The notes under the pieces are model-generated. The model had not been told where the DNA came from, ran no database searches, and worked only from the letters and a program-made list of their open reading frames with translations. Made by a program: the position numbers and the translations under genes. From Pecten maximus (lineage: Eukaryota), in NCBI RefSeq assembly GCF_902652985.1, contig NC_047023.1:33480001-33544000 (forward strand): a DNA stretch of 64,000 bases, given 5' to 3'. Shown one piece after another: positions 1 through 35,173 of this stretch. Within the stretch, counting starts at the first letter, position 1. Each line of letters opens with the position of its first letter.

Positions 1-1
1 A

Positions 2-3000
2 ATGGCGGATTTAGAAGACGGTGAAATACCAGATTCGGATGAAGAGGTTTGTAATGTAAAACACAACCCTATCATGCAAAACAATGGACCATCAAAAACA
101 ACCATTTTTCGTTACATTAATTTCCCATTCAAAGCAACCATACATAAACGCATTCGTGCCTATATTTACAAATGCATTTTTGAAGTGCGTATATTATTCG
201 TATTCACTTCGGAGGTCTTAGTCCGTCCGGTTGTAGGCCTTATTGGCGAGTCTCTTATAAAAGATACGACTGTCAAAATATTCTCGCCGTGTTGACCCCC
301 TAACATTGTTGAAATGTTGAAGTACGAATATGGTATGGAGTATCTATATAGGCCTTTTAATTTCACCACATTGTCCCACACATAGACCTACTATGGATAT
401 ATCATGAAGTCATAATACCACACACAGTCACACCACTGACACTGTACAGTACGTATACCCCGCAGGGACCACATGTACACTAGTCCGAATTTTCTAACGA
501 TCTTACTACGTAAGGCAGCGTTAAAGGCGATATTGACATCAGAGCCCTTAAGATTAGGACCACACCTGCATATACTTCCACAAAACACGACATATGATCT
601 TATCAAAAGATAACGTCTGAAACATTGGTTTTATGGTACAATGATTATGATGACATTTTTAAATGGGGATGGACCAGACAAGGAACCAAATTACAGCATA
701 AAATCACTTTTATCAGGTTTGGTAATATGATTTGTAATTGTATGCCATAGTATAATGTGTATATATCAGGTTTGGGTCCTTTGTCCAGTCCTTTCCTAGT
801 CATAATCTGGTCCGAAATTATCAAGATCATTTCCACTTTCATTTTAAATTATAGCATTAATTCAACATTTTACAAAATATACTGTGGGATACATGGTAAA
901 TATGTAATAGGAAGGAGTAATGAAAGATACCATGCCCATTGCCCACGATGGAGCTCAAACTATCGACATCTTGCCCTCAAGGCCAGGGCCAGAGGAAACT
1001 AGGGATAGTACTGCAAGATGAGCTATACTGCACTTTCACAATTGCAAGTTACTAACCCCTAGTTTTTACACTATGACGTACAGGGGCCTGTATCTGGTAA
1101 GTACATAGAAAATGATGATCTCGACCTACTTTATAGTAGTGCGCTGCAATATAGAGTGCTGGTGAGATAATATTTTCACCAACAGGATGCATGCATGCAA
1201 CTCTGGTTACATGTGTGGCATGATCAGTGTTAGACTTAGTTTAATAGCTATAGTTTCCTGTTTTAATCTTCCCTGATCCAAATGAGAGCTTACAAATTAA
1301 AAAATTGGAAAATTAAGTCACACAACGTAAGAAAAAAAACCACTAGGTCTTTTATTAAATCCTTGAGAGCATATTTTTGACTTTTGACATTTGAAAGCTT
1401 TACATTGGAAGTATACACTCTTACTATACATAGATTAATATGATGCACCTTCAGCTACATCATGTCATAGTGGAAATATGTTAATGTATTTAAATAAAAT
1501 GATTTTAAAGAATCAAAGTGATGTCCTTTTTTCAATTTTCAGGTTCCTTCATCTTTACCCAATAGTAAGCCAGATGATGTGTCGATGAACTATCCTCATG
1601 CAGGTGGTGATGTTCCATCCTCCTTCAGTGTAAGACAGCCTTCAACTAAAACCACATTATCGTACAATAACCATACATACCGCAGCAGACCTTCAAATCC
1701 TCCAGTGGACAGTGAGGATGATTCTTCAGGCACTAGTGATGAAGACACAGATCTCTGGCAGTGTAAAAAAGCCAAGTACTTTTCTAAACCAAGGGTTCAG
1801 AGTATGGATCTTGCTCATGAAATTACCTCCCCTCCTCGAGGAATGAAGCCACCTTCGAATGACACAGGATGAAGATCCATTGGAGAGCCCACAAAAGAAA
1901 CGGAAGGTGAACAATGTTTGGGGTACAGTCATTACAGAACAGACCATTACCCATTCATTCAAAACAGGTGCAAATGTTGATAAAAATGAGGATTGTTTGG
2001 AGGAACGAGATGTTGAGTCATATGATTACACAAAGGCTTATGATGACGATAGACCATGTCTTGTAGAACAGCGAACAATTCAATCACGAGAAAGCAATGA
2101 CCCATTTGAAAATGTTATTGATTCAATTGAGGAATTATATGATGTTGAGACAAAAAAATCTGATGTAGAAAGTAGAAAGCGGAAAAGATCTGTGAAAGAC
2201 CGAGTAGGCAGAAAAGAACATCAAAGTATGAAAGACAGAATAGGGGAGAAGGAACGACAAAGTGTTAAAGAAAGATTAGGTAAAAATGAAGAAAAAAATG
2301 TGAAGGACAGGCTAGGTCAGATAGATCCAAACATAAGCAGAATCGAAGATGTGAATGAAAGAGATCCAGAGGAAAAAGTGACCAAGGCCATATTGGATAT
2401 GTTGGATGAACCCAACACAGACTTAATTGGTGAGTAATGTTTGAAATTGTGGTATTAACAAGTTTTACAATGGACATGTGTGCAGCCAAGTTAAAGTCTT
2501 TGGTTTTGAAAGTTGTAGATTTTCTATTAATGATAGTTTACAGTGTACCCTTTGTTTGCCTTAGATTTGTTATTTACTGCATGATGATTACAGGAAAACA
2601 ATTTAAAAGAAAAAGAAATTACTTCATAAGCTGAAAAAGTGAGAAAAAAAAAATCATGGTCAACAAATCTATGCATTAAATTTTTATGAATTATATTGAT
2701 GTGCTGATTATCAAGATAATTGAAAATTAGTGGAAAAACTATAGGGAACCAATTAATGGATATGCTAAACTGAAAAGGCAATTAATCAGTAGTTTACAAA
2801 TGACAAAGTAAGATTGTGAATTTTCTTTTTATTATTGATATTGTAGGAAGGATTGTCAGTGTTATTGGGAGAACTTTGGCCCTGAAATTTGCTCATCAGA
2901 CGGAGGATGTGGAGTCAGCTGGTGGATTGTTGACGAATGTATGATCTTTTGAGCTGTGTGCAATCTTAATGATATATCTTTGGGCTGTTCAAGTAAAATA

Positions 3001-5842
3001 GATATAACCCCAAGGAAGGAAATCAATGCCAGAAATAAAATTCTGTGTATGGTGGAAGTGAGCGAAAATTTGGCTCATTCCATGATGTAGTATATATAGC
3101 TATAGGAAAGCATCTGCGTTTGGTTAGCACCAGTTTTCATAGAAAAACATTAGCCCCTACTCCTACTACATGTATATCAATCAGGTGTAACAATTAAAGA
3201 TCGGACTATGCATCGACTGTCGAACGAAAGTCAGTCAGCTTTCTATATATATCCAAGAGCTGTATATATATAACGGACAGTCTAATCGGTCAACAATTAT
3301 AGTTAGTATTGCTTACAGAGCTGGTCAGCAATCTAGATTGCCCAGGCCATTGCAAAACCGCTCTTAAACATATAGCCTTCTTCCATTACACTGTTGGTCC
3401 ATCGTGGGCTATCACATCTGCTTTTCGTCCATTTTCTCATCTTAAAATCATTGTTACATGACAAAAGGATATCGCACATTAATATTTAAAGATTATGAAC
3501 CAAGGTAGATCACAAAAATGTATTTGCATTTGATATTTTATCTGGATTGAACTTAACTTCAAAGTGAGCTGAAGCTCACCCCCACTTCCTATACTTTTCA
3601 AGTGTTACGCCTTGTTAATATATTAGGAGTATAGGGTGTTTATATATAAATACTAATTAGAAGCACATGTCTGTTGTATAGTTTGAATTAAATAATTTCT
3701 TTTGGTGGTTCCCGTCTGGCAAACAAGCTGGATTCCTCCCATTTGGTAGATATTTTACTAGAATAGCCCCTATGGATTTCACCACATATCGTGTTCACTA
3801 ATGAAAATATTCAAACAAGGCATATATATTAAAGTACATAATTTACACGCTGAAATAGAGTTATAGTACATAAGAATGCAAACAATTTGGTATTGGTGCT
3901 GGTGTATATATATTGACCCTTGACTTTTAGCAATTTCTGAAGTCAAATAACTATTTCTGAGAAATCTGAAGGGTCAAAACATATGTCAAATAGACATATC
4001 CCTTCAAACCCAAGAATCAGATCTCAATTTGGGGAGTCAAAAACATACTCTCAAGGGTCTACTGGATGCCCTGTTATATCTATAATTTTCACATTGTCCG
4101 GTTTAAAATACATATAAAAAAAAGATTGACAAAACAAAGTCTTCATTAGGCATTAGCGCACGCGCATATATACATATACATGTATATATTTTGTCAAATA
4201 TTGGAGGGAATGTGCCCCTTTATCTAGACAAGTAAATTACAAATAATCTTATACAGACATAAAACATAGAACAATTATAAAAGTTTAGTAGATAAAAAAC
4301 AAACAATATTGTTATGTTTGTGTTTATGCTCCCTTCAGTTGATAAATTTATTCACAGAAGGCCTATTGTAATTATTTAGAATAAATCTTGGGTAAAGTAC
4401 AGATGTTTAAATAAATACCTAGTAAAAAAAAAGATTTAAAAAGTAACAGCAAGTTGAAGCAATGTGATGGGAGCACATGCTATGTGCATATACTGTATAT
4501 AAAAATGATATTAAAAACACATTTATATAATATGTAGTAAAGAATGCAGAAAAAGGTGAGACAATTGTCAGGAGTATTAATAAGTAAGGCATGTACTGTT
4601 GTAGGATGGTGCACGGCGACGGACTCCAGGTGGTGTTTATTTACAGCTGTTAAAGAACAGTAAGGATATCACTAAGGAACAGACAAAGGAAATATTCGCA
4701 GAAGAAGAATTGAAATATAAAAGGGAACAACGAAAGATTAAACGAGCAAAGAGAAAGAGGTGAATTGTTGAAATTTACCAAATAAAGTGCAGAAATTTAA
4801 AGGCATTTTAACTTATACCCATTTTGAAAAGATTCCTTTAACTCTGTACCATGCATTATGAGTGTTCTAGCAACACAGCAGTGTTTGATGGGATTTATTA
4901 TACTCTATCATGCCAAAAAATGTACACATATATTGATCCTTTCTGTCTGAATTTTTATGATGTTAATATACTGATACATGTATTATTAAATCTTTTTTTG
5001 TTTAAATTTGAGTCAAAATATGGATCTTAAACAAAACATTTAAAATAAAGGTAGAAGTTTTGTCAAAAATTGCCATCAATACAAAGACTCACTCCAAAGT
5101 AAGGTGTATTGGTAAGTGTGTGATTTCAAATTGAACATATTCCCTAGCCTGTTTATAGTTACAGTATATATAAACATGCCCTATAGCTTCTTGTCTTTTT
5201 ATAAGCACATAACACTTCTGTAGGTCCAACAGGATATGGGAAATGTGAGTGAGGGATATATAAGTAATAAATAATTAATAAACATGATGAAATGTATGAA
5301 AAATAGATTGTCCTCAATATATGTTTGCATGTTATTGAAGTATATATGATACAGTAACATTAAGTGGAATACAATTTGTTTACAACACAAGTCTGATATG
5401 TTGCCCTTCTTCTTGGTTTATAAAAGTGACACCTTGAAGATATTTACAAATATACAAGAAATGTAGTGTTGGTATGTAACATATTTAGAGCTTGAATTAA
5501 AATATGGGATTTTAATGATTCTAACATAAATCTTTTAATATCTTTTTTTTCAATCACAGACAAAATCAGCTGAGAAAAATGTTACCACAGTCAAACTACG
5601 CATCCCAGAAGTCCAAAGGAGGTCGAAAACAGGATGTGGAGATGCGTAATGAGAATATGCCAGAGGTAGATGACTGTAACGATGACAGTGATGAGGAGGA
5701 TGGTCAACAGGACATTGCTCAAGAAATTGAGGCAGCTAAACAACAGCAGGTTGAGGCACGGAAAATGGACGATTCTGAATTTTCTTTAAATGATTCTGAT
5801 GTTGTTGATATTGAGCTTGGCGAGTTTGAGAGTTTTGAGTGA
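2..5842 (+). CDS. PHAX: Phosphorylated adapter RNA export protein; exons 2-46, 1543-2429 (frame break near 1847-1869), 2847-2938, 4605-4759, 5560-5842
   Basis: N-terminus MADLEDGEIPDSDEE; LWQCKKAKYF and RKVNNVWG motifs; spliced RNA-binding domain G-RIVSVIGRTLALKFAHQTEDVESAGGLLTN-DGARRRTPGGVYLQLLKN matches the PHAX RBD signature (RRTPGGVF/Y). All introns are GT-AG with compatible phases (0,1,0,2). Confidence 0.93.
2982..3769. mobile_element. Putative MITE in PHAX intron 3
   Basis: Imperfect terminal inverted repeats gggctgttcaagtaaaat / attttactagaatagccc (2 mismatches in 18); no coding capacity. Confidence 0.45.
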
Positions 5843-6134
5843 TTGAATGAACACACTAATACATGTATGGAAATCCAGCCAGTATTACAGAAGGGTTTCT
5901 GTGATTTTCTTTATATTTTTAGAATAATTTTTGCACTTGTATTGAGTGTATTATGAAATTAAATAATAACAGGGGTATCGACATTTTATTAAACAAATAT
6001 AGTATTTTCACTTAGTTTTGTTTCATTTTTGTTCTGTTTATGTTAAATTAGGGTATAATTATTTGTTTTGGTCTTTTTTTTAACATAGACTTTTTTGTTC
6101 TGTTACTATGTGTTCAGTTTCCCTTCGTTTGTAA

Positions 6135-6967
6135 GGGCGCACTTGATTTACTGCTCGGATCACCACTCTGATCCTATTCCGATCAAAATTAAATCAAGTA
6201 GGTTACACAATACAGAACCGGAGGTTACATGGCAGACACGAAAGCAGTGGTCTCCTATCTCGTTGTTGATGAAATTTTAGATGAACAACGAGATAGGAGG
6301 AAAGACGAAACAGAGCTTATGGCCATCTTCATTCCAGCTATTGGTGCTGTAATGTGAGTCTCTGATTATGTTTAACGCCATTATTACTTATTACGCTGTG
6401 GTTTTATATTTAAATGCTAGACTACTGTCTGTGAACTTAGTTTTGTTTGACGAAAAATCGATGTTAAATTTGTTTAACTCCCTCGGAAACATAATTCGTA
6501 TTTTTGAACAGCACTTGCTTTGTTGTAACTGAAATTTCTAAACTTTTTATTTATCTTGATTCCGATAATGAAAAAAAATTCCTTCTTCAAGACTAGCGAA
6601 AATCTGCTGAGATTTTACTATGGAGAGTAACGTAATGACATTACGCATTACGGCCGTTTTTCTTACTAGTCTCAAAGAAGGAAAAAATTTATTCAGAAAA
6701 ATTTCATGAATATTTGTTCAATTCCTATAACGACAAAGAGTCTTTCTAGAAAAAACAATTTTCATAAAAATGGAGCTATCACAGCAAATTTAATGCGGAC
6801 ATTGTTCATCTGTTAATATCATCCGCCATTTTGAATTGTGGTTTGCTCCATGTGCACCACCTCGCGAGAAAGAGCAGACTGAACAGTGATCGGAGCAGTG
6901 ATCCAGACACTTGATTTGAGATGTCAGCGATCAGCTGTGTACTCCAGTAGCTAAATCAAGTGCGCTC
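6135..6967. mobile_element. Non-autonomous DNA transposon (MITE, Harbinger-like)
   Basis: TIRs gggcgcacttgattta / taaatcaagtgcgctc (1 mismatch), subterminal inverted matches (ctgctcggatcac / gtgatcggagcag), flanks TAA/TAT, internal perfect 16-bp hairpin at 6252-6299. Confidence 0.7.
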
Positions 6968-7457
6968 TATATATGTTCTTTCTATTTCACTTTGTCCTAT
7001 CATTCACTTCCGACTTTGTTCCGTTTCATTCCATAAAAGGGGTTCAGAATGCTGTTGAGCAAACTAAGGAGTATTGCCATTTAAATGTATTCAATAATGA
7101 CATTTTAACTGAACAATAAGAGAAACAATCTCAAAATTTCATTGTTATATGTATTGTTGCTTTGCACTATTAGATTGTATGAAAATCATTTCGTCTTCAA
7201 TCTTTGCATTTTGTTTTGTTTCATTTTGGTGGAATTGTTGCGTTTCGTTCCATCATACACATGTTTCTTCATTTCTGTTCTACTGCAAATAGGTGTTTCG
7301 TTTGTTACTTACTCTGGAAATCTTGTTTAAGAAGTCTGTTTAAGGTTTATTACTTTTTGTTCCATTTCAACACTGTTTTTTGTTTTTATTCTGTTCCATT
7401 TGTCAACTAAAATGTTGACACCTCTGTATGTGATAGGTGATAAAATTATGGAATTTG

Positions 7458-7675
7458 ATTTGATTGTCCCTCAGTCAAGACACGAGAGACAAGTGTTGTA
7501 TGAAAACCAATAAAATCATAAATCAGAATTGGATTTGACTTATCTATTAATTATAAAATGTTTTTTATTTGATTGTCCCTCAGTCAAGACACGAGAGACA
7601 AGTGTTGTATGAAAACCAATAAAATCATAAATCAGAATTGGATTTGACTTATCTATTAATTATAAAATGTTTTTT
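7458..7675. repeat. Near-perfect tandem duplication, 109-bp unit x2
   Basis: gattgtccctcagtcaagacacgagag...tataaaatgtttttt starts at both 7462 and 7571. Confidence 0.9.
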
Positions 7676-9314
7676 CCTACATAAGTTTTGGACAGTACAT
7701 GTTCTTGTGCCACCAGAATATGTTGCCCCATACAGATTTTTGAAGCATTGGTTATTATTCCCCATTCTACATAAGGGGGAGGAATTACGAATTGGTCACC
7801 TTCCATTTTTCAGTCTCTGAGGTAACCTTTATTATAAGACCAATTTTCATGAGGTGCTGTAGAACAAGCACCCATAGCTATCGTAACCAACTTTCGTGAC
7901 GACAAATTCATTCAGAACTCTTGGAATTAAAATTCCTTCAAATGACATAGGATATTCATCAGCAATACATCCAGGAATGCACTTCTGTCTTCTGAATCTG
8001 TCTTATTTTGATTTTGTATTAATATACTACTTGCTTTTCTCCTTTATTTTTACCCCTCATACACAGCACATTTGAGTGAATGTTTCTTGGGTTGTACGTG
8101 TTTTAATGATTACCATGGTCTACATACAGATCTTTGACATATTTAACTCTTACATGCATTGTAGGTCATCGTCATTTTATCACAGTACAGCTGTAAACTT
8201 GGTTGTTTCGTTAAGATTTCATTAATTATTTAATAATTTAAGGTCATGGCGACCTTGGGACTTACTATGATGAAGGGCATATTGATGTCTGCCCAGTCCT
8301 TTGTTGTGAACTCCCCATCTGTGTGTAGAAGGGGTGTATTATGCTATTGTACACTGTGTTCGTCTGTATATCGATAAAAGTTCACACGTTTGCATTAGAT
8401 ATACTCTTTTGAGAAAGAGCCATAAACTTCACCTATTAGAATCAAAGATGGCCACCTGTAAGTCATTTTCACTGTTGGATTAGCCTTAAAGTCAGATATG
8501 CACATGAAATATAAAGACAGTCCCTGAAGGACAAAGATTTTCAGAGAAATTGAGATAACAAACTTCAACTCACAAAATCCAAGTAAATGTGTAGCTCCTG
8601 AAAGCATGAGGATTGACAGCTAAAATTGGTCCAAAACACTACAGTGCTTATAGTTTCAACAATACACCTGCAGTAGTTCTTGACAATTTGAGGCAACAAT
8701 TTTCAAATGTGAAATGGTTGCTGCATAGTGGCAATCTTGAATATCTGATCACACTCATGATCAACATAAACGCATTTGAAAAAAAGACATTCATTAGAGC
8801 TTAGAAATATAGAAGTTTTAACAAAATAATGTTTACCTGATCAGAATGACAAAAAGCAATTTGAAAGCTCTGAACATCTGATAATGATGGATTGAAAATG
8901 TGTTGAGGTATAGTGCCACAAATATAAAGAAAACCTTTTTCGATTCATGCACCATAAAATGACAAACAAGAGTTAGATTAATATGAGCATTTAATTTCAT
9001 ACATCACATACATATTTCATGCTGGCAGGAAATATTTCAAACCTGAGAAAGATTAAAATAATTTGTATCAAATCATTGGTAATGAGGCATCATTGTAAAC
9101 ATATCTAGTCTGCAATGTTTATACAAAATCTGTGTTTTTTAAAAAGTAGCATGATCAAGTTGCACTCTCAGTAAACTGGTGTTGTCATCAGTTGACAGAA
9201 AATCTACCAGCAGCAGAAACATTTGCATCAAATGCAACAAAAAATACATACAGCTGCTACAGTACTGCATTAGTCAGTAAAATACCAATAGGTCAGTTTT
9301 ATGCACATATATTA

Positions 9315-9496
9315 ATACAAAGGACAATAACTCTGTAAGAAATTGTTGAATATATGGCTGCATACAAAGTTTCATCAAACTTGGTTGATATATACTCAAG
9401 TTTCTCATGTTTACAAGGTTTTGTTAATGGAAGGTCAGACATCGGACACTAGGTATGGCATAAGCTCACCTTGTTACTTCAGACCAGATGAGCTTA
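9315..9496 (-). mobile_element. Degenerate Helentron/HINE-like fragment
   Basis: aaggacaataactc...aagtttcatcaa...taagctcacc-N-gatgagcttaa terminal hairpin, typical of the end of mollusc non-autonomous Helentron elements. Confidence 0.45.
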
Positions 9497-10510
9497 AAAC
9501 AAATAAAAAGGTAAAGGGAATTAAACTGTAAAAGGCAAGGGACAAGTTTCAGAATGAGGTAGTCCCCTAATCTAAGTTTCCCTGTGTACAACGTTAACTT
9601 ACCCATTTGTTTAATTATGACACTAACAAGAGAAAAAATGCTGCGACTCTTCAAAGAAAGGGGCATGATAGCAGATCTCTATATATTATGCAACACCAGG
9701 CTTCCCATGATGATATATATAATTATCATACTTTTTATACATGTATGTACATACTCGTGTTGAGGTGAAATAGTAATTAAATTACTTATTGTTCAAGTAG
9801 TCTAGGCGAGGAAACAAAAGGGCAATAACTATGCAAGTTTTTAGGAAATGCAGTTTATGGTTTACCCCCATCTAAAGGTATATATATATGTACAAAGTAC
9901 ACTAAATTAAGAATCAAACTGTCCAAATTATAGTATGAACAAGAAAGAAAAGAGTGGAAAGTCCAATATAGACAGCGAATTTCCATATGTGACACTCGAT
10001 CCATCTTCCACAATCATACATAGTGTGACAAGTTAAATGAAATAGCAATGCAATTATGCCCTTGAAAAATATTGTTACACTGTAATACCATCTTTCTGTA
10101 AGCCAATACCATACCAAAATATCTTAATAGATTGTAAAAAAAAAATGAACTACTCGCAGTAATCATGTCATTATTTTGATCAGCACAATGATTTAATTAA
10201 GCTACAAAATTGCTTTAAAAAAACCAACAAATAACAGCTAGATATAAGATATTTCAAATTACCTAGGTTTTTTTTGAAGGACACGATTGAACCCATTTTG
10301 AAATTTGTAATTTTCCTAAAAAAATGTTTCGAAAAGCTGTTAAATTACATTACCCTCCCATATAGTTGAGGCAAAAAGTTTTAAATAATATAGTAGGCAT
10401 GTACTCGCATATTGTCACACAATTATCTCCCTTTCTACAGGGAAAATCTACAGTAACAAATTGATTAATGCTTTATCAGACATGTTTCCTTGCTGCAGTT
10501 AAGACACACA

Positions 10511-12018
10511 CTATTCATCAGCTTTATCTTTGGACATTCTCAATTTCTTCTTTTGTATATCACTGTCTATCACCTCGATAAGAGATTCACTGTAGCGTTT
10601 CAGCACGGCTGGGACCACATATGGAACACCCATTAGAAAACTGTATGTAAGCCAACAATTTGGATTTGCTGCCACACCATATTCTCCTTTTGGATTACGC
10701 CGTAACAAGTTCACAATGCGAATCTGACCTTCATTGGGAAACAAATTATTTTGGAATGGAATTGTTTGAAGCTTCCTGGCAGCTTCAAAGTCATACACTG
10801 GCTTGTTCAACTTCTTCCTCTCTCTTGCCTCCTGAAATTTTTATAGAAAAATCATAATTAATTAAAAAAAATATGCTTCTTTTACAATGACCTCATATTA
10901 TATGGCAACATTTTAAAGTATTTTCATTCAAGTAAGTCAAGTGATACTGATGGTAGGATCAGGAGTGGTATATGTTCTGGTATTTGAAGTTGTTCAATGC
11001 TTAATACCAATCTATCATTTTATAATGTAGAGCGACATGAAATTTCATACCAGTAATTAAACTTGACCGCTTATCTCTTGTACGAGTTTGTGTCTCAATC
11101 GTCAATCTTAGAGTAGTGCCTTTAATAGGTACTTTCATGTTTCATGCATCAAAAGTATATATACATGTATGCTTTTGGTTTGTATTTATAAATTATAGCA
11201 AAAAAATAGATATATATACATACCTGGTTTTAGCTCCTACTCCTACTAAAGATATGATGGGAGTAGGGGCTAATATTTCTTTTTCTATTATATGAAAAAT
11301 TACTGTCATCAACCTTTCTGTAATTTTTGTTTATATCAACAGAAAGCTGTCCCTGAACATAATAATGATAATAATATCCATACATGTATAATCTAATTAC
11401 CTTAAGTGTATGGCAGAATGAACTAAGACATGAGGAGATATGCATCCAATATGAAGGCTGGTAATAGACACGTTTGAGGAGAACCTCTTTAGTTTTGGTG
11501 CACACTGCCATGAAATCACACCATGGTACTCCTGCCATGTACATCTGTCCCTGAATCTGTGCCATGTAATACCTTGGAATTCTTCCCCACTTTTCACCAT
11601 AGCCAAACAAGTTATGTATTGGAGCTTTGAATTCACAAACACCAATGGTTTTGCCCATTTTGTTTGTCACAACTGCATCTGGTGTGGCACCTACCAATCC
11701 TTTCAACATGTCACTTTCCCGTGGAACCCAGAAGCCAGATTCTCGAATTTGGTGTGCTTCATTATTTCCCATTAACAACTGGTAAGCTTCAAATATAACA
11801 GCCTCTGTATCTATTCCATGCTTTTTATTAGCCATTTCTTCAGATTCCTCCTCGTCAGCTTGGACATCTTCTGACTCTGAGTTAACAAGATAACAGAGGA
11901 AATCAAATGGTCGTCCTCTGCCAACCCCTAAGGCTTCCCCAAATCGTGATGCTGTCAGAGCCACCTTTTTTCTCTCTTGAAACCATTCTTTGGATCTTTG
12001 TTTCACATCTATCTCCAT
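10511..12018 (-). CDS. YqaJ-like viral recombinase / lambda exonuclease family nuclease, ~312 aa; coding exons 12018-11401 and 10831-10511
   Basis: Motifs QRSKEWFQER..LTASRFG, HGIDTE, ESGF, GATPD, EFKAP, YYMAQIQGQM, WCDF in the correct order. Donor AAG|gtaatt after 11401 and acceptor tttcag|GAG at 10831 join in phase 0 (CHTLK-EARERKKLNKPVYDF). An upstream acceptor near 12114 suggests a 5' UTR intron. Confidence 0.88.
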
Positions 12019-12713
12019 TGTATGATAGAGAGGAATTTTACAATCTCCAAATTATTATTTTTTGACTGGTTCACATCTGGGATTCCTTCTGTGTACCTTT
12101 CACTTCATTAGATCTAGAAACAAAGATAAAAAGTCAGTGATTGCAAAGTAAATTAAATGTACTGTCTGAACTAAAAATCAATAGTACCACAACAACAAAG
12201 AATTTTCTATTAATTTTTTGGGGAAAATCACTGAAAAAAAGCAACATTTTATGAACTGAAACACCCTTCTGATCCATCAGAGTCACTGCCCTTTATCTCA
12301 CTCGGTCAGTGGTATAGCAGTAGCTTGACAGTTGATGTGGGCAGAAAACATAAAACTTATTCTCTGAACAAATAGGAAAAAAATCTTCTAGGCACATTCC
12401 AGCAAAGCCCAACTCATCCATACATTAATGCTGAATTAGCCCTTTTTATGTATATTTCTAAAACTTGGTTTGTAGGTTCCCCTTTGTCCCTATTTAAATT
12501 CATTCCATATGGAGTCTGATGGGGGAAATGCACAGTCACAGGCAGCCATCTTTGATTTTGGTTGTTGAAAATTGTTATGATAAATAGATAATTTGAATTG
12601 GAGTTTTATATACAGCTGTATATCAAAGCAACATAGCCACGTTTCGAAGCGATTCACAAATTACTATCAGTGGCTATTGGGCCTTAAGCACCCAGCCAAT
12701 GTCTTTCTCAACT

Positions 12714-13135
12714 CTCACCCATCCAACAGCTGACCAACCTCAACATTGCTTAACTTCGGTACAGACATGCCACTCAACCGCACAACCAAAAAAGCTAGCT
12801 ATTGGACTATGCAGCTGAAATGACCATATCCATGAACCCTGGCATCCTCAGCAAACACAACTGTTGCCTCATGACCAGACCCCCTAGTCATGCACCAACA
12901 AGTCTCCAGGAACATAGTGCTGCCCATGCTGTCCAAAGGCACCATACAGGATACCAGGCCTGCTTGCTGCCACCAAATGTAACGTGCACCGGGGGGAACA
13001 ATGAGAGGTCACCCATCCAAGAGCTGACCAAGCTCGACGTTGCTTAACTTCGGTACACAGACAGGACACTCAACCGCACAGCCACAAAAGCTAGCTATTG
13101 GACTATGTAGCTGAAATTCCCATATCAATGAACCA
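12714..13135 (-). mobile_element. Two 5S rRNA-derived (SINE3-like) segments within ~125-bp direct repeats 294 bp apart
   Basis: Minus strand of 13007-13054 reads accgaagttaagcaacgtcgagcttggtcagctcttggatgggtgacc, matching the 5S rRNA internal control region (box A to box C). A more diverged copy lies at 12715-12760. Confidence 0.7.
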
Positions 13136-14401
13136 TCACATTACAAGTGTGGCAGGTTTTGATTTTAAATAGTGTACATACTATATGGTCACCTTCTTGC
13201 TTTGGTCTTGGAGGGGGGATTTCTCTAGGCTAAGTCAGTAGAATGCATATGGCAGGTCATGGCCAGTAGCGGGGATTGCAGGTTCAATCCTACTCCAACA
13301 ATGTTAGAGGTTTTACACGGCGAGATCTGCAAAATAATATCCGATAGAAAAAGAGCCGACCAGCGGCCTCTTATGTTATAGGAGTAGTTCAATCCCTAGA
13401 ACGAATAATCATACCCTGCCTTCACTCCGTTCTGACGACGACAATCTGTCAGAAATCTTCCGTCCGTCGTTCAGAGCTACGTCATCGCAGCTATTCAATC
13501 CCTGGTAGAGGCACTCTACTCTTTCCTATTACTAAAAATTTGGTACCATTGACCAATCCAAGTGCAAGGTACTATAGGAGAATGATCAGTTTCGTTGGAG
13601 ATAGAACCGACTTGATATGTGTTCGGGGGCGAACACATTTGAAAAGTTAGGAGTATATAGGGTGGCAGGTTTTCATTTTAAATGTGATACTACAAAATGA
13701 TACAGTTGCCTTCTAGCTTCACTAAGCAAATTATCAATGGAAAGAAACAGTATTAGTTATTTTTATTTAGCACATTCCTTCAATTTACAATTTTTGTTTT
13801 CGTCACTGAATGACAGCCTTACGTACCAACCAATGTTTGTGTGGTAATGTGGAGTTACAGAAATTATAATAACTATACTTCAGAATGTTATATTGTAAGG
13901 GTTGTCCCCCTTGTTCTGATTTTACCTCTGAACTAAATTTATATTTAAATTAAATTAGTTACGTCGTAGGTACCAATAATGGCATGACGGGAGACGTTTC
14001 AAAATTGACCTCAGAAAATATGAAGTGTTCATAACATGGTATTGTGTAGGAACTAAGAAAATCTAGCTGACTGACACAAATAAACAGAAACCTGGTGTTT
14101 CTGCTATACTGTATGCGTGTGGAGATTTTCCCATCAGACCTTAAAACAAATCAGATGTTGACTTTTTTTTAGCTTTGAATAACTTTCTTCTATGTTTTAA
14201 ATGTTTGCAATTAACCTGATGGCCATAGTTGTTTACCTCAACAAATTCGTTCTTTCTGGCAGAAATTACAATTGCCTTTTCTACCTCCGGAACTAGAGAG
14301 TCAAAAGGGGTCTGACGACTTAACAGGATCGGTCAGGATCAGGAGACAACAGAATCGGAATAGTACGGAATCTTGTATCACTATAGTGGTTGTGTATGGG
14401 A

Positions 14402-14719
14402 GGTCGGTCTTATATTCCGAATGCTCTTTAGCCGACAGTCCGAAGACTCGACAGTCCGAATATAGGTAAATATAGGGGGCGGGGGGGGGGGGGGGGGGGG
14501 GGGGGGCTTTTTGGCACAACGATTTTTTTTCTTTTGGTTTTTAATTTCCTTTTTTTTCCGTATACATAATGTAAATATGTTTAATATACTCCATGGGAAA
14601 CCTTCATACCATACCTGTATATAACCACTCGACTACGTTACAATATTACATATTTTCGCACTCCCGGGCTTTAAGGCTTTCAGACTATAGGGCATTCGGA
14701 ATATATAAGGCGGTCACCG
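14402..14719. mobile_element. Putative degenerate MITE containing a poly-G tract
   Basis: Inverted repeats cttatattccgaatgc / gcattcggaatatataag; short acagtccgaa repeats inside. Confidence 0.45.
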
Positions 14720-16126
14720 TTTGTAAGCTGCATGAATGCCTTGGATAAAGTTTACATGGGTCGTAATTTAGAGTAAAAGGGCTGATGACTGACAACTTTT
14801 ACTTTTTCGTGTTTTAGGGTACAAGTCAGTGTACATGCGCACGACATAATAAAAATTTGATTATATCGTGCAGAAACGGCTTTGATAAAAAAAAGATTTA
14901 TAGAATAATAAATAGTTTCTGTGACATCCTTCTTGAAATTACATAATTATACAGATTTTCGATCTTGGGGTCTATATTAGAAAATGAAGTTAAATTCTGT
15001 CATAATTTTATCAGTTATGTTCTAATTCACCAGTTCAAACGAACATAAATTATTTATCAAATAAAACTCAACACACTGTGTTCAGAATACCGCTTACTGC
15101 AGCTGACGCTATTTACTGGGCACTCATTTTCATAAAAAAAAATCACGACGATGTCCATAATCACACGCGATACCGCCATAATAGTCCTTGCTCTTCGACC
15201 TCTTTACCACATCCTTGTCTGGCTTACAGACCTGTAACAAAGAAAACAAAACAAGAACAACTTCTCTTTCCAAGATATATTTGGTAGGCGGGGGATAGGG
15301 GGGGGGGGGGGGGGGTGGGGGTAAACTATAGCGTCTGTCGAGGTGCGCTGCAAAAGCTCGAATGACCCACGTACCTAGTACACCTGTAGAACTCACCTGT
15401 ACCACAGGTAAAGCACGTGCATCGTTACCCAATACACTCAATGCCCCATAGTCACCCCACGGGTGCCCCTCACTGTAAACACAGTGCAAACGTAATTCAA
15501 CTATAGACCGCATGCAGTGACTTGTGATCAGCTAGGGCTCCTGTCTAGCTGTGACCTTCTTTATGACAGGATCACTCGCCACCGCATCATCGGAGACATC
15601 ACCCGATGATAAGTGTAGCGTGGGTCTCCGATGAAGCGAACACGCTTCGAGTGCTAACGTCATCAACGTAAGAACACACAAAACAAGAAATATCTTTAAA
15701 AAGATAAACGGCATAGTTTTAATGCTTATTGTTATAATGTAAAACTGCTGGTGAAATAAATTAACGAACTCATGCGTTTCAGCACGGATACCAAAATTAT
15801 ATCAGTTTGAATCATTTTTGATGATAATATGACTGCATTTGTATCAGGAATATGATTTTATGAATGTGTCTATGAAAAGATACAGCCACTTATTCAGCTT
15901 GCATTCAGTCTTAACTGTTTCGTTTTTAACTGCATATCTCTTTAAAGAGAAACGGATATTCAAGGCAGTAAGGAGTGAAAGGAGAACGAAACATTGGCAT
16001 GGGAAGTGATGAACATTAGTATCAGCATCAAGCTTTGAAAAGTGCTTTGTGTATACTTCTGTTGTCGGCATCGGTGAAGATTAGCTCTTATCTAAATTGC
16101 TTGGGTGGATATATATATAGATATGT

Positions 16127-16128
<2 letters not shown>

Positions 16129-16172
<44 letters not shown>
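16129..16172. repeat. (CT)n microsatellite
   Basis: About 22 uninterrupted CT units. Confidence 0.95.
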
Positions 16173-16178
<6 letters not shown>

Positions 16179-17821
16179 AAATATGTAAATATGTGTAAAT
16201 ATGCCATCTTGTTGTAATGAGTATGTATAATTATATCGGGAAAGGGCTTTATATAAGTTGTATAACTTGTGCCCAATCCCTTTGTAAAGTTCAGTTACAA
16301 ATGTAGTGTTGATAAAAACAACAACATTGAATTCGTTGACTCCGGCATCATTCCCTAACCCGCGGTAGGCTGTAAACATAACATGTAGAGCGATGCTGGA
16401 TTTTATTCTATCTCAAATGAATTTACTTGTATGTTAACATGTTTTACCTGTGGAAAGTAAGAAACTGACTATAATTGGTTTGCATTGGTCATGCAAAATC
16501 TTTCTTTCTTTGTTCTCCTAAAGGTGCGGAAACACTCCCACGGCCACAGGGGCTTGGCACGATTTTCCAAACACGGCTACGTCATGTACATATATGTAAT
16601 TATATATGATGCATATAATGAAAGCTCCATTTTTGTTTATTTCATACGGGTTAAAATTTAATACACAATTTATATTACGATTGAAATCTATATAAATTTG
16701 ATATGGCTCATTCCGTATACTAGTAGATTCTAGTTGATTCTTTCGAAACCGCACATTTGTGCGGATAGTGACGCACGATGTGCATGCTGTACATTGTGGA
16801 CACGATGGTGCGTCCTTTTACACTGGATCGTATTTCATGACGACTTTATTGGAGGGATTTGTTGGTGAATAAGACAGAAATCACAACACGACACCATCAT
16901 TTTTGCTTCCTGGCGCGAAACTGTTTTTCTTTTATTCCGGAAAACACCAAGACAAACTAATTTTTGGAACCATCCGGAAATAAGACATTTAATGGTAACC
17001 TAAAAAAATATATTTTACATAATTTTCATAATAGTAGCTACATATTAAATTAAAGTCACACGGAAAATTTCACATCGCCCAGGGCGACACTCATCAACAG
17101 TTGTATAGAAATATTACCATCGTGTTTACATCGACAAATAATTTAATTTAAAATCAGGTACAGGTGAAACCACAATGCGACGCCCGAGACATCACTTGAC
17201 GTCACACGAGGCTCTCGCCGACACCCACGTGACGTAATCACGAGCGATATTAATTATGTACAATTACATTACATATGATTTTCCCTATTTATATTGTACA
17301 AATCCTGGAAGGAGACGCATTATGTCTGAATAAAATGCATAAAACTAAATGTATACAAACGAGTCTTACACCTATACTAGAAAAAAATAATTATATTTTC
17401 GAATTTTCTACTTGCTAAAAGACATTAAGTGATATCGGTTTCCCCATTATTTTGCCATCTCTGTGTCCACTTTGATCACTACCTTCACTTTATGAAATCA
17501 GAATAATTGTTTTATGGGTGACATATCTGCGATAGCATAAACATATATCGCACCACCTAATTCACGTCGTACAAATCCGTCTGCATGAACACTCCACCAT
17601 TTAAGCTTGTTCATTTGGATCTAGCTCAGACAAAAATGCACGAAGACATGCAATCATCAAGGATTTTGTCGATTTTGATTCAAAATGAGCAGTTGCCAGT
17701 ATCACAATGTCGGATGTTATTAATCAAAACATAAAATGTATCACCACGTCTAATAAGGTAAAATGATTCATGTACGTTTTTATGTATTGTATAAAAATAT
17801 TAATGTACAATCTGGATCGAT

Positions 17822-20800
17822 AACATAGAATGTTGGGATTATAGAATGTGGGGATTACATAGAATGTGGGGATTACATAGAATGTGGGGATTATATACAA
17901 TGTGGGGATTATATACAATGTGGGGGTTATATACAATGTGGGGATTACATAGAATGTGGGGATTACATAGAATGTGGGGATTATATACAATGTGGGGATT
18001 ATATACAATGTGGGGATTATATACAATGTGGGGATTACATACAATGTGGGGATTACATAGAATGTGGGGATTACATAGAATATGGGAATTACATAGAATG
18101 TGGGGATTATATACAATGTGGGGATTACATACAATGTGGGGATTACATAGAATGTGGGGATTATATACAATGTGGGGATTACATAGAATGTGGGGATTAT
18201 ATACAATGTGGGGGTTATATACAATGTGGGGATTACATAGAATGTGGGGATTACATAGAATGTGGGGATTATATACAATGTGGGGATTATATACAATGTG
18301 GGGATTATATACAATGTGGGGATTACATACAATGTGGGGATTACATAGAATGTGGGGTTACATAGAATATGGGAATTACATAGAATGTGAGGATTACATA
18401 GAATGTGAAGATTACATAGAATGTGGGAATTACCTACAATGTGGGGATTAAATAGAATGTGGGGATTACCTACAATGTGGGGATTACATAGAATGTGGGG
18501 ATTACATAGAAAGTGGGGATTACATAGAAAGTGGGGATTACATAGAATGTGGGGGTTACATAGAATGTGGGAATTACATAGATAATAGAATTGTGACATT
18601 ACATAGAATGTGGGAATTACCTTACAATGTGGGATTAAATAGAATGTGGGGATTACCTTACAATGTTGGATTACATAGAATGTGGCGGATTATATAGCAA
18701 TGGGGGATTACATAGAACTGTGGGGATTACATAGACTGGTGGGGATTACATAGAATGTGGGGCAATTACATAGTGAATGTGCGGGATTAATATTTAACCA
18801 TGTTGGGGATTACATAGAATGTGGGATTACCTCGAATGTGGGGGATTACATAGAATGTGGGGATTAATACGAATGTGGGCTTACAATAGAATGTGGGGAA
18901 TTATCTAGAATTTGTGGGGAGTTACATACAGAATCGCCTGGGGGTTACAATAGAATGTGGGGATTAACATAGAATGTGGGGATTACATAGAATGTGAGGA
19001 TTACCATAGTAATGTGGGGGTTGGTACATAGAATGTGGAATTACATAGATGTGGGATTACATAGAATGTGGGAATTACATAGAATGTGAGGATTACATAG
19101 AATGTGGGGATTACATAGAATGTGGGGATTACATAGAATGTGGGGATTACATAGAATGTGGGATTACATAGAATGTGGGGATTACATAGAATGTGGGGAT
19201 TACATAGAATGTGGGAATTACATAGAATGTGGGGATTACATACAATGTGGGGATTACATAGAATGTGGGGATTACATAGAATGTGGGGATTACATAGAAT
19301 GTGGGGATTACATAGAATGTGGGGTTTACATACAATGTGGGGATTACATACAATGTGGGGATTACATAGAATGTGGGGATTACATAGAATGTGGGGATTA
19401 CATAGAATGTGGGGATTACATAGAATGTGGGGATTACATAGAATGTGGGGATTACATAGAATGTGGGGATTACATAGAATGTGGGATTACATAGAATGTG
19501 AGGATTACATAGAATGTGGGATTACATAGAATGTGGGGATTACATAGAATGTGGGGATTACATAGAATGTGGGGATTACATACAATGTGGGGATTAAATA
19601 GAATGTGGGGATTATAGAATGTGGGGATTGCATAGAATGTGGGGATTACATAGAATGTGGGGAATTACATAGAATGTGGGGATTATAGAATGTGGGGATT
19701 ACATAGAATGTGGGGATTACATAGAATGTGGGGATTATATAGAATGTGGGGATTACATAGAATGTGGGGATTATAAACAATGTGGGGATTACATACAATG
19801 TGGGGATTACATAGAATGTGGGGATTACATACAATGTGGGGATTACATAGAATGTGGGGATTACATACAATGTGGGGATTACATAGAATGTGGGGATTAC
19901 ATAGAATGTGGGGATTACATAGAATGTGGGGGTTACATAGAATGTGGGGATTAAATAGAATGTGAGGATTACATAGAATGTGGGGATTACATAGAATGTG
20001 GGGGTTACATAGAATGTGGAGATTACATAGAATGTGGGGGTTACATAGAATGTGGGGATTACATAGAATGTGAGGATTACATAGAATGGGGGGATTACAT
20101 AGAATGTGGGGATTACATACAATGTGGGGATTACATAGAATGTGGGGATTATAGAATGTGGGGTTTACATACAATGTGGGGATTATATAGAATGTGGGGA
20201 TTACATAGAATGTGAGGATTACATAGAATGTGGGAATTACATAGAATGTGGGAATTACATAGAATGTGGGGATTATAGAATGTGGGGATTACATAGAATG
20301 TGGGGATTACCTACAATGTGGGGATTACATAGAATGTGGGGATTATAGAATGTGGGGTTTACATACAATGTGGGGATTACATACAATGTGGGGATTACAT
20401 AGAATGAGGGGATTACATAGAATGTGGGGATTATATAGAATGTGGGAATTACATAGAATGTGAGGATTACATACAATGTGGGGATTACATAGAATGTGGG
20501 GATTATATACAATGTGGGGATTATATAGAATGTGGGGATTACATAGAATGTGGGGATTACCTACAATGTGGGGATTACATAGAATGTGGGGATTATATAC
20601 AATGTGGGGATTACATGGAATGTGGGGATTATAGAATGTGGGGTTTACATACAATGTGGGGATTACATACAATGTGGGGATTACATAGAATGTGGGGATT
20701 ACATAGAATGTGGGGATTATAGAATGTGGGGTTTACATACAATGTGGGGATTACATACAATGTGGGGATTACATAGAATGTGGGGATTACCTACAATGTG

Positions 20801-21757
20801 GGGATTACATAGAATGTGGGGATTATAGAATGTGGGGTTTACATACAATGTGGGGATTACATACAATGTGGGGATTACATAGAATGTGGGGATTACCTAC
20901 AATGTGGGGATTACATAGAATGTGGGGTTTACATACAATGTGGGGATTACATACAATGTGGGGATTACATACAATGTGGGGATTACCTACAATGTGGGGA
21001 TTACATAGAATGGGGGGATTATAGAATGTGGGGATTACATAGAATGTGGGGATTACATAGAATGTGGGGATTACATAGAATGTGGGGATTACATACAATG
21101 TGAGGATTACATACAATGTGGGGATACATAGAATGTGGGGATTATATACAATGTGGGGATACATAGAATGTGGGGATTATATACAATGTGGGGATTACAT
21201 AGAATGTGGGGATTACATAGAATGTGGGGATTACATACAATGTGGGGATTATATAGAATGTGGGAATTACATAGAATGTGGGGATTACATAGAATGTGAG
21301 GATTACATAAAATGTGGGGATTAAATAGAATGTGGGGATTACATAGAATGTGGGGATTATATAGAATGTGGGGATTAAATAGAATGTGGGGATTACATAC
21401 AATGTGGGGATTACATAGAATGTGGGGATTACATAGAATGTGGGGATTACATAGAATGTGAGGATTACATACAATGTGGGGATTATATAGAATGTGAGGA
21501 TTACATACAATGTGGGGATTACATACAATGTGGGGATTATATACAATGTGGGGTTTACATACAATGTGGGGTTTATATAGAATGTGGGGTTTACACACAA
21601 TGTGGGGATTATATACAATGTGGGGATTACATAGAATGTGGGGATTATAGAATGTGGTGTTTACATACAATGTGGGGATTACATAGAATGTGGGGTTTAC
21701 ATACAATGTGGGGTTTACATACAATGTGGGGATTACATACAATGTGGGGATTATATA
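17822..21757. repeat. 18-bp minisatellite, consensus TACATAGAATGTGGGGAT, >200 copies
   Basis: Directly visible tandem array. It generates the MWGLHR / CGDYIE / NPHILC / PTFYVI ORFs in all frames. Confidence 0.98.
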
Positions 21758-21933
21758 ACACGTGTACCACATTACGGTCTCTCAAGCTGTGCGGTCTTAT
21801 ATTGTACCGTTATATGTCCCGTCATGTGGGGGAGTACATATGTAATTTACAACGATGTAACGGCATTATACTAAATTATACATGTACAGGTAAGGCCGAT
21901 TTACAGAAGTAATTTTGGGTATAAACCGTTCTG

Positions 21934-32643: not shown

Positions 32644-34101
32644 TTAAGAAAATGTACTGCTCCTTGGTTTTCCACGCCCAAGATGAAATCCAAGGGTCCC
32701 ATCAGGACCTTTGGGTTGTCGCATCACACCTTCCATATCCAGCATGTGGTGTCTCCCATTTGGACTGCGTCCAGGAGTTGTTTGATTGGCTAGTGGACTG
32801 ATTTCCTGAGCAGCCTTGAGCCTCCGTTGTACCCAAGGACTAGAAGGGGTACTATCTCCCCCAGAGGAGTAATCATAAGTCTTTCTACTCATTTCTGGAC
32901 TGCTTCTTGGACTATTCCTTGGACTGTTGCCAGGACTTCCGTGTGTCAGTGGGGATTTAGTATGCTGATTTCTGCGGCGGGACCGAGGGCTGGTCAATGG
33001 ACTAGATCTTGGACTAGAACGGGGTGAGTTTGATGGGCTTAGTTTATTGGGGTCCAAATGATTTGGACTGAGCGATTTTTGATGGTGAGCGATAGAATGC
33101 TTTGAAGGAGTAGGAGTATCAGCCTCAGACCCACTACTGGCATAAGACGAGTCATTCTCACGTGCAAGTTCATCAACTCTGTTTTTCTTCCTTCTTTCCC
33201 TCCTTTTCTTTTTCTTTTCATGATTTTCCTCTCCGTCATCACCATCGTTTTCTTCATTTCCATCCTTATCCTTCTTTTTTTCTTTCCTTTTTTGAGGAGC
33301 AAGAAGCATGACTCGCATACCTTTTCTCCAATCCTCAGTATCTGTCATTGTATCACAGGCAAGTTTAGCAGACTCATGCTTTTCGAATTCTACAACACAA
33401 CAGATAGTGGTACCAATTTCAGTGTGTTTAGCAGCATATTTTTTTACATCCTGTGGTATACTCTTGCCAGGACGCAGGATACGAATCAATGAAACCTCAC
33501 CACACTTTGAAAAAAGTTCAGCTACATTTTCAATTGACGGTGTCTCCATAGGGAGATTAACCGCAACAACAGAACGTGATGGTGTTGTTTCGTCATATTC
33601 AGGCAGTGGATCTGTCCGTCTCACCTTCTTGCCTTCTTCATTCACTTCAAGATGATCAGAATTTCTCAAACTGTAGGCTACAGCTCTGTAATCTTTTGTT
33701 AAAGACTTCACTTTCTTAAAAGAAGTAATAAGTTTTATGCTTACATACCCCTGCCTATTTCTCCGAACGTGTTTTAACAAAAACGCGTCCTTCAATATGT
33801 TGACATCAGAGAAATAGAATTCAACCTGTTTGATTATCTTGTCACGCAATTCGTCGGTAGGAGGATGAAACTCCGGTTCGGGAGACTTATCCCTGTCACC
33901 GTCACCCTCCTCTTCGCTCGTGTACACTGAGCTCGTGCCGTCTTCATCTTTGATTTGCTCTACACGAAGAAACGGGGCCACAAGGGACGGAGAGGCGGCC
34001 ACGTTGTTTACCTCTTCTACCGTCTGTTCAGGTGGACTACCGTCGTCAGCCGGTACTTCATGAATGACAGGGACGTTTTCGTTCACAACAGACTCACTCA
34101 T
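32644..34101 (-). CDS. LARP6: La-related protein 6 (Acheron), 485 aa, uninterrupted CDS
   Basis: La motif (KIIKQVEFYFSDVNILKDAFLLKHVRRNRQGYVSIKLITSFKKVK), adjacent RRM (SVVAVNLP...CGEVSLIRILRPGK...VVEFE), basic NLS-like tract, SP-rich region, SPWVQRR motif and C-terminal LSA/SUZ-C motif (VMRQPKGPDGTLGF). Confidence 0.95.
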   Translation of the reverse strand: MSESVVNENVPVIHEVPADDGSPPEQTVEEVNNVAASPSLVAPFLRVEQIKDEDGTSSVYTSEEEGDGDRDKSPEPEFHPPTDELRDKIIKQVEFYFSDVNILKDAFLLKHVRRNRQGYVSIKLITSFKKVKSLTKDYRAVAYSLRNSDHLEVNEEGKKVRRTDPLPEYDETTPSRSVVAVNLPMETPSIENVAELFSKCGEVSLIRILRPGKSIPQDVKKYAAKHTEIGTTICCVVEFEKHESAKLACDTMTDTEDWRKGMRVMLLAPQKRKEKKKDKDGNEENDGDDGEENHEKKKKRRERRKKNRVDELARENDSSYASSGSEADTPTPSKHSIAHHQKSLSPNHLDPNKLSPSNSPRSSPRSSPLTSPRSRRRNQHTKSPLTHGSPGNSPRNSPRSSPEMSRKTYDYSSGGDSTPSSPWVQRRLKAAQEISPLANQTTPGRSPNGRHHMLDMEGVMRQPKGPDGTLGFHLGRGKPRSSTFS

Positions 34102-34238
34102 TGTCTCCAGGTATAATTATTGTACCTGTAACTTGTCCAAAACAAACAGCTTTCAGTCTATAAGGCAGTAAAATTGTAAGGAATCCCCCACAAAACTGCG
34201 TGCCTTCTTGACTTGCTGCCGTGTGTACGTCCTTGTGA

Positions 34239-34274: not shown

Positions 34275-35173
34275 TGTTGTAAGGGGTCATCTCAACCTTT
34301 AATCTTCGATGTTACCGCCCTTCATTCTGTGCGGTTATCACTGAAAAACAGTGGGATGTAGCCAAAGTTTAAAATGCATATAATTTATATTAAAACAAGT
34401 TGGCGCGTACAAATACTGCATGCAATTCCATGCGTTACATTTAGGACAGACTCGATAAAATGGTTAAGAGCAGTAAATCTAGATTAGAATCTGGGCATGG
34501 GTAATTTATTTTTTATTCCTTTTTTTTTTTTAATTTTTCGTTTAAGAATTATTCCGGTTTTCAAATTTAAGATACGGAATCTGGCTTTTATAGGACCAAA
34601 ATTGAAAGTAACAAAGAATATATTCTGTAAACTAATGTGCGAAAATGTAGCTAAAGCCAGCAGTACTAGAGGTTCAGTTGATAACAGCTGTTTCATATTG
34701 TTTAATTGTTTGTTCTTGGTGGGTTTTTTTCCTCCCCCCGGGATATTCTATGGTTAATTGTGTTTGTATATTTGATATACGTATGGTAAATAATGTTATT
34801 ATAACTTCATTCTAATGCGTCCAACGAATAACTTTAATTAACATTATTTCATCTGTTTTGTTTAAAATTCACAAACAATATAATTGAATAACCTTATAAT
34901 CACAATTACAAGTTAAGACACTTTTAATATATATGTAATGCTCTATTTTATAGCCATACCTCTGTATTTTCCGCGTCCATCATTTATTGTTAACTTATAT
35001 CTTTTCTAAGATTTTACCAGAGACTTGTATATACGTCTTGATTTTATCAACCGAATAAAGTCATTACAATGATGAATATGATAATGAATTCAAAATGAAA
35101 TAGGCGTTATGGCAAAACAAACTGGTGCACAACAATATGATAATGACATGTAGGAAGTAATCAGTGTGGGAAC

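Follow-up and report, generated by a model that had tools for sequence, protein, structure and literature searches.

The intron-containing YqaJ gene in the window, i.e. the whole 64-kb stretch of Pecten maximus DNA that was analyzed, is very probably an ancient host gene encoding an active nuclease. It appears to represent a conserved choanozoan host subfamily of lambda-type exonucleases that is apparently undescribed; no title or abstract describing the animal and choanoflagellate subfamily was found in partial listings of the literature, in which supplementary gene-family tables might list members. With relatives reaching to a sponge and to choanoflagellates, the gene is older and more wide-ranging than a preliminary description of the same DNA had guessed.

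The gene is encoded on the minus strand. Its first coding exon (11401..12018, 206 codons, residues 1-206) starts with the ATG at 12018 and contains the whole YqaJ / lambda-exonuclease PD-(D/E)XK domain, with residues W12, R16, T22, S24, E72, D114, E129, K131, Y151 and Q154. A phase-0 GT-AG intron of 569 nt (10832..11400), at a position common to the family, separates it from coding exon 2 (10511..10831, 106 codons and a stop, residues 207-312), which encodes a C-terminal extension. The joined exons form a 939-nt frame with one terminal stop, and the 312-aa product (P0001) is identical to 'uncharacterized protein LOC117334751 [Pecten maximus]' at NCBI. All of the YqaJ family motifs listed in the preliminary description were present in the sequence, and the Pfam comparison proposed there gave 57.1 bits for exon 1 against YqaJ (PF09588), the cut-off being 22. 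The intron and the 106-aa second exon, also predicted there, turned out to be exact in frame. Contigs from three out of four runs (X2, X8 and X1, from three studies; one recorded as RNA, two guessed to be RNA) bridged the coding-exon junction 11401/10831 exactly, and the intron had no depth in two of these three. No contig of run X6 crossed the junction.

Upstream, the first coding exon continues into a 5'-UTR part (12019..12113, minus strand), which starts at splice acceptor 12113 according to the contigs. The 5'-UTR intron was seen on the same strand in a long form (12114..13414, 1301 nt, GT-AG, donor 13415; one contig of run X6) and in a short form (donor 13182, acceptor 12113, 1068 nt; one contig of run X1). 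The former leads to a 5' non-coding exon at 13415..13460 (minus strand, 46 letters past the joint in run X6, upstream end approximate), and the latter to an alternative one at 13182..13306 (minus strand, run X1, at a low depth of 2.6). This alternative exon is overlapped by a high-copy dispersed repeat at 13289-13387 and is possibly an exonised repeat. Two diverged copies of another repeat, of about 130 nt and very high contig depth, are situated in the 5'-UTR intron (12715-12845 and 13009-13141) and may resemble a 5S-derived SINE. The 3' UTR (9500..10510, minus strand) exceeds 1 kb; two contigs go about 138 letters further, which would take it to about 9360 if they are colinear. An Rfam scan of 9000-14500 gave no match. 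The gene stretch was present in 20 of the 24 runs listed (7 studies), four of the 20 being recorded as RNA. Among the variants listed from contigs, substitutions numbered 3 in the coding sequence versus 19 in the 3' UTR (p = 0.0008; five further rows fall outside this listing), and two of the three coding variants altered the amino acid.

When the 918-Mb genome was searched with exon 1, one 100% match and nine weak ones (32-34% identity) were obtained from 88 scored candidates, and exon 2 had a single match. At each of the nine weak YqaJ loci (9/9) the opposite strand has an ORF for a DDE_Tnp_4 transposase, and the loci form three groups with 92-99% DNA identity within groups. At locus L102 (G000:C18:8716139-8724858; L102 1140-9859), THAP, HTH, DDE and YqaJ ORFs lie between terminal inverted repeats; locus L101 had no clear ones among its 25 longest pairs. 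We read loci L002-L010, L101 and L102 as ISL2EU-type DNA transposons, whose near-identical copies make up at least three families. A YqaJ ORF is part of ISL2EU elements, and their layout, as given in an excerpt of PMC4482050, matches that of the weak scallop loci. The YqaJ ORF of ISL2EU (PHIS superfamily) and the scallop gene have in common a YqaJ domain in an animal genome, here even the same genome, and the same catalytic motifs. However, the ISL2EU copies are multicopy, start with a long N-terminal part and are accompanied by THAP/HTH/DDE transposase genes, all features absent from the scallop gene, to which they are only 32-34% identical and from which they differ in clade. Terminal inverted repeats likewise occurred in one of the two ISL2EU loci examined and not at the scallop gene.

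The nearest identified neighbor of the YqaJ gene is PHAX (1-5842, plus strand, PF10258 split over two exons), which is convergent to it, just as first described. A La/RRM/SUZ-C (LARP6-type) gene is found at 32644-34116 on the minus strand. Between PHAX and the YqaJ gene lies a MITE-like structure (6134-6968) with 17-nt inverted arms (94%) that are 801 nt apart and enclose inner hairpins, and upstream of the YqaJ gene there is a short ORF (15532-15801, minus strand) with a hydrophobic, signal-peptide-like start. Long low-complexity tandem arrays with spurious periodic ORFs occupy 17800-21900 (with strong GC skew), 35060-35770 and 55200-56200.

No transposase was detected in the 64-kb window by tblastn with nine transposase ORFs as queries (best E 0.66), and no specific terminal inverted repeats were found around the gene (6000-17500, among the 25 longest of 88 inverted pairs), in line with the preliminary description, which had seen neither nearby. 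One inverted pair (8428-8459 / 12538-12569, 32 nt, 78%) flanks the coding exons; it was rejected as terminal repeats, as its motif occurs 11 times in the window, and it leaves the first exon outside. A recent transposon or endogenous-virus copy was rejected as well, the gene being single copy and lacking both a transposase and specific terminal repeats. Dispersed copies inside a transposon and missing spliced transcripts had been named beforehand as signs against a host gene; what was found is one copy, and it is spliced. These searches gave no close viral or prokaryotic donor: identity was at most 30% in the best 80 of 136 IMG/VR loci (viruses, pattern-seeded scan), 26-28% at 2 loci in GTDB genomes (prokaryotes, pattern-seeded scan), and up to 27% among the 50 listed viral predicted structures.

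Two AlphaFold models of the full-length protein had pLDDT values of 87.9 and 90.6, with disorder only in an acidic loop near residues 49-58. The best solved fold was LHK-Exo (Z 19.0, rmsd 3.0, 186 aligned), followed by lambda Exo (Z 16.4, rmsd 3.3, 190 aligned; both Foldseek and VIA-align); mimivirus R354 was also among the top solved structures, and weaker matches included EXO5 (Z 9.1), MGME1 (Z 9.0) and DXO/Rai1 (about 5). Lambda exonuclease (Red-alpha; PDB 1avq, 3slp, 3sm4, 6m9k) and LHK-Exo (3syy) share the fold, the PD-ExK site and the 5'-phosphate pocket with the scallop protein. They differ from it in that the scallop gene is eukaryotic, host-encoded and equipped with introns and a C-terminal extension of about 100 residues. 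Residues W12, R16, T22, S24, E72, D114, E129 and K131 align to lambda W24, R28, T33, S35, E85, D119, E129 and K131. Of these, the metal ligands E72, D114, E129 and K131 are invariant in 35/35 rows; T22 and S24, together with H67, G68 and Q154, are invariant in all 30 animal-set and choanoflagellate rows, and W12 and R16 are kept in 29 of the 30. An ExKAP motif stands in place of the commoner ExKCP in 107 of 112 family rows. Since the phosphate pocket and the metal ligands are kept, homology gives good support to the prediction that the protein is a nuclease acting on 5'-phosphorylated ends.

In lambda Exo, as described in part of PMC11611040, three subunits form a ring; the 5' phosphate is held by Arg-28 and two Mg2+ by acidic residues, Leu-78 acts as a wedge in the duplex, and Arg-45 follows the minor groove. 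The latter two features have no clear equivalents in the scallop protein. At the Leu-78 site, located by profile alignment rather than superposition, it has a lysine (K65), and T, L, K, M, I, A and Q occur over 25 animal-set rows, i.e. there is no conserved wedge. The Gly-rich rim loop at the Arg-45 site is shorter than in lambda Exo, position 34 being R or K in 22 of the 25 animal-set rows and in none of five choanoflagellates. Most animals have an acidic loop ahead of the HG motif. With wedge and rim loop not clearly preserved, the enzyme could have lower processivity, might not assemble into a ring or might act on another substrate; it is uncertain whether it forms a ring or is processive in the manner of lambda Exo.

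The search for relatives proposed in the preliminary description led to molluscs and beyond. Molluscan members were found in bivalves (scallops, mussel, oysters, clams and freshwater mussels), in abalones and limpets, and in octopus and argonaut. Other animal members came from the tube worm Lamellibrachia, sea stars and a brittle star, two acorn worms and the sponge Corticium, and choanoflagellate ones from Salpingoeca macrocollata, S. punica, Hartaetosiga, Choanoeca and Codosiga. Identity among scallop genera is 82-84%, and metagenome orthologues have 41-58% protein identity. A profile search of 1.84 billion representatives returned 34 proteins at E up to 1e-30 and 6,986 at 0.001. An animal profile was made from 24 rows, leaving out the sponge and the choanoflagellates and including seven rows without species label that were assumed to be animal. 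It gave 233 bits for the sponge and 199-216 for the five choanoflagellates. Of the seven printed stand-alone YqaJ proteins from outside the clade, in comparison, six reached 105-115 bits and the seventh 96; an ISL2EU copy had 75, and viral ORFs did not exceed 79. Its C-terminal half matched the sponge at E 1e-14 and two of the five choanoflagellates at E < 0.001; the choanoflagellate proteins stop short of the last helix. The matches of these word-seeded searches included no named vertebrate, arthropod, nematode or cnidarian; the searches were incomplete, missed known members between runs and returned many unlabelled matches, and loss from these four groups is accordingly a lead only.

The intron site and the C-terminal extension are shared within the family. 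A GT donor stands at the same codon boundary in loci L013, L014 and L016, in the last of which the acceptor and the second exon are in frame too, and additional introns interrupt the nuclease domain at loci L017 and L020. Gene calls that read into the GT donor are expected to leave a valine right after the intron boundary in C-terminally short proteins. Among the 97 scorable of 115 family proteins, such a valine was found in 42 of 48 without the C-terminal part versus 0 of 49 with it (p = 2e-21, many rows being related and not independent). The extension itself consists of a helix end, strands, a W/F-x-x-Y/F-D-F-L-M-G motif and a long terminal helix with a basic stretch. This stretch, possibly a nuclear signal, was located near the C-terminus of the scallop, oyster-like and octopus rows by visual reading. 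In a search of 1,020 sequences, the 106-residue extension was confined to the family. The second exon had been described as not recognisable, and Pfam indeed gave no match over cut-off for it; ESM Atlas feature scores were below 0.9 and TM at most 0.40. The two AlphaFold models cover the extension only within the full-length protein, so that it may still have a known fold.

In a tree of 58 rows, chosen from 140 dereplicated ones, one clade with support 96/92 comprised 26 rows: 14 from the animal set, 5 from choanoflagellates and 7 unlabelled metagenomic proteins (P0054, P0056, P0057, P0063, P0064, P0065 and P0071). The unlabelled members may come from protists or viruses; pattern-seeded scans of IMG/VR gave no close match for P0054, P0064, P0071 and P0063. 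Relationships within the clade are poorly resolved, and neither animals nor choanoflagellates were recovered as a single group. Five ISL2EU-like rows branch apart from the host clade (98/97), and the viral rows did not group with the scallop family. The supported clade, the private C-terminal extension and the shared intron site together argue for an old host subfamily, one that probably arose before animals did, and vertical inheritance since the last ancestor shared by animals and choanoflagellates is likely. As the clade mixes animals and choanoflagellates with seven unlabelled rows, transfer among lineages is possible. An AU test with the family and ISL2EU as one clade, groups chosen after the first tree, gave p = 0.267; this arrangement is thus not rejected, and the family could have originated from a virus or a transposon. 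Such a mobile-element origin would have to be very ancient, a recent one being largely refuted. With regard to the 'domesticated host nuclease' first suggested, the host nuclease stands, as an expressed single-copy host gene with an intact active site. 'Domesticated' may or may not hold: the family grouped with neither ISL2EU nor viral rows, and no viral relative exceeded 30% identity in the best 80 IMG/VR loci, but the joint ISL2EU clade is not rejected (p = 0.267).

Stand-alone YqaJ proteins are not exclusive to this subfamily; plants have host genes of this kind, known as annotations. PF09588 is listed as present in eukaryotes in an excerpt of PMC3424549, and the plant protein At1g67660, a 'phage-related exonuclease', is listed in a chloroplast stromal proteome in part of PMC10493611. 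The plant and algal proteins of this kind resemble the scallop one in being host-encoded eukaryotic YqaJ, and the best ESM Atlas structural match was a Streptophyta cluster (TM 0.65 over residues 1-261). In contrast, stand-alone YqaJ rows, which have no species label, reached only about half of the family score and lacked the C-terminal motif. With no named land plant in the tree, the plant proteins are at most candidate orthologues. Viral counterparts, i.e. mimivirus R354 and other giant-virus YqaJ proteins as well as herpes and baculovirus alkaline nucleases, have the same fold (Z 14.5 and 10.4), but they differ in architecture, and identity was at most 30% in the best 80 IMG/VR loci. The human proteins MGME1 and EXO5 are host PD-(D/E)XK 5' exonucleases whose core fold is the same (Z about 9); they are not of the YqaJ family, with 7-11% identity in structural alignments. 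'Novel system', as the preliminary description had it, is too strong a term for a single gene beside which no linked partner was found, the more so as plants have stand-alone host YqaJ proteins.

As regards function, we consider it an evenly balanced proposition that the protein is a host enzyme resecting DNA ends for repair or recombination. As a predicted Mg-dependent 5'-to-3' exonuclease, it would resect free DNA ends for these purposes. By analogy with lambda exonuclease, a 5'-phosphorylated DNA end would be bound in the R16/T22/S24 pocket, cutting would be performed by two Mg2+ held by E72, D114, E129 and K131, and mononucleotides would be released, leaving a 3' single strand. At the level of guesses, the enzyme might act in the nucleus as a ring trimer and pass the 3' tail on to proteins of the host, e.g. 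RAD52, for annealing or recombination, and the C-terminal extension might replace the partner-binding surface of the phage enzyme. Indirect hints of a repair role are the single copy, the strong conservation, the presence in many libraries and the lower number of coding than UTR variants. One copy without expansion would also fit housekeeping better than an immune arms race. A further indirect hint may be repair-type fusions in distant relatives outside the scallop clade, namely a YqaJ-uracil-DNA-glycosylase fusion in a Chlorophyta cluster of 54 members (ESM Atlas) and a GRF zinc-finger fusion in one of 44 YqaJ proteins scanned. P0169 and P0130, also outside the clade, account for the GRF fusion and for a weak match to ARMET_C. 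The plant 'phage-related exonuclease' of the chloroplast stromal list is a further distant family member that hints indirectly at repair.

A RAD52-family search found no annealase beside the YqaJ gene, which is on contig C9; the matches were only on contig C7. With RAD52 in the genome an exonuclease-annealase pairing is possible, and the presence says nothing about partnership. That a lambda-type ring exonuclease and RAD52 form a cellular counterpart of Red-alpha/beta, i.e. an ancestral single-strand annealing pathway kept in molluscs, echinoderms and sponges and lost from vertebrates, flies and nematodes, seems quite improbable to us.

Less probable than end resection, though still deserving attention, is that the same ancient host exonuclease serves in defence or clean-up, degrading linear foreign DNA from e.g. 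large DNA viruses, excised transposons or engulfed prey in filter-feeding and marine holozoans. Every named carrier is an aquatic invertebrate or a choanoflagellate, and the range, as seen in incomplete searches, looks patchy, which is also typical of defence genes. The genome carries many near-identical ISL2EU-type copies, and the structural relative mimivirus R354 is, by the title of a source, part of a virophage resistance system. Nevertheless, the gene is single copy and strongly conserved (82-84% identity among scallop genera), and no fusion to a sensor domain occurred in the family members scanned. Bivalve defence genes, on the other hand, are often expanded and fast-evolving.

Somewhat less likely again is a host nuclease whose substrate or compartment has shifted, either a 5'-phosphate-dependent enzyme acting on ssDNA, flaps or RNA, or one for organellar maintenance like MGME1 and EXO5. 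Lambda Exo's wedge and rudder residues lack clear counterparts here, and MGME1, EXO5 and DXO/Rai1 have the same fold, albeit at lower Z; both fold and sequence are much nearer to the dsDNA exonucleases LHK-Exo and lambda Exo. The plant homolog in the excerpted chloroplast stromal proteome list would agree with an organellar role, but the scallop protein starts at the nuclease domain, and most rows of the alignment lack an N-terminal extension for a transit peptide.

Finally, it is very improbable that the gene is carried by, or recently came from, an ISL2EU transposon or an endogenous virus and has no host function: even with YqaJ-encoding ISL2EU elements in the scallop genome, excerpts of two bivalve genome papers that mention YqaJ only as transposon-related or viral families, i.e. 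as mobile-element or viral cargo (PMC10225492, PMC7826175), a joint ISL2EU clade that was not rejected and the inverted pair flanking the coding exons, this is countered by a single copy spliced with UTR exons in a window without transposase, an intron site and C-terminal extension conserved across phyla, the 32-34% identity to the genome's element copies, and the recurrence of the inverted-pair motif, which moreover excludes the first exon.

Lambda-type exonucleases are usually treated as enzymes of phages, giant viruses or transposons, and here one subfamily turns out to be a host gene, single copy and conserved all the way from choanoflagellates to sea stars and scallops. Should it be a dispensable housekeeping nuclease, the value of the finding would be a correction of annotation. 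A RAD52-partnered annealing pathway, if true, would have been missed by DNA-repair biology due to its loss from vertebrates, flies and nematodes. If the protein is an active end-resecting enzyme, it could serve as a eukaryote-adapted exonuclease for genome editing, and it would add to the ancestral animal toolkit for DNA repair or DNA defence a component that model organisms may have lost.
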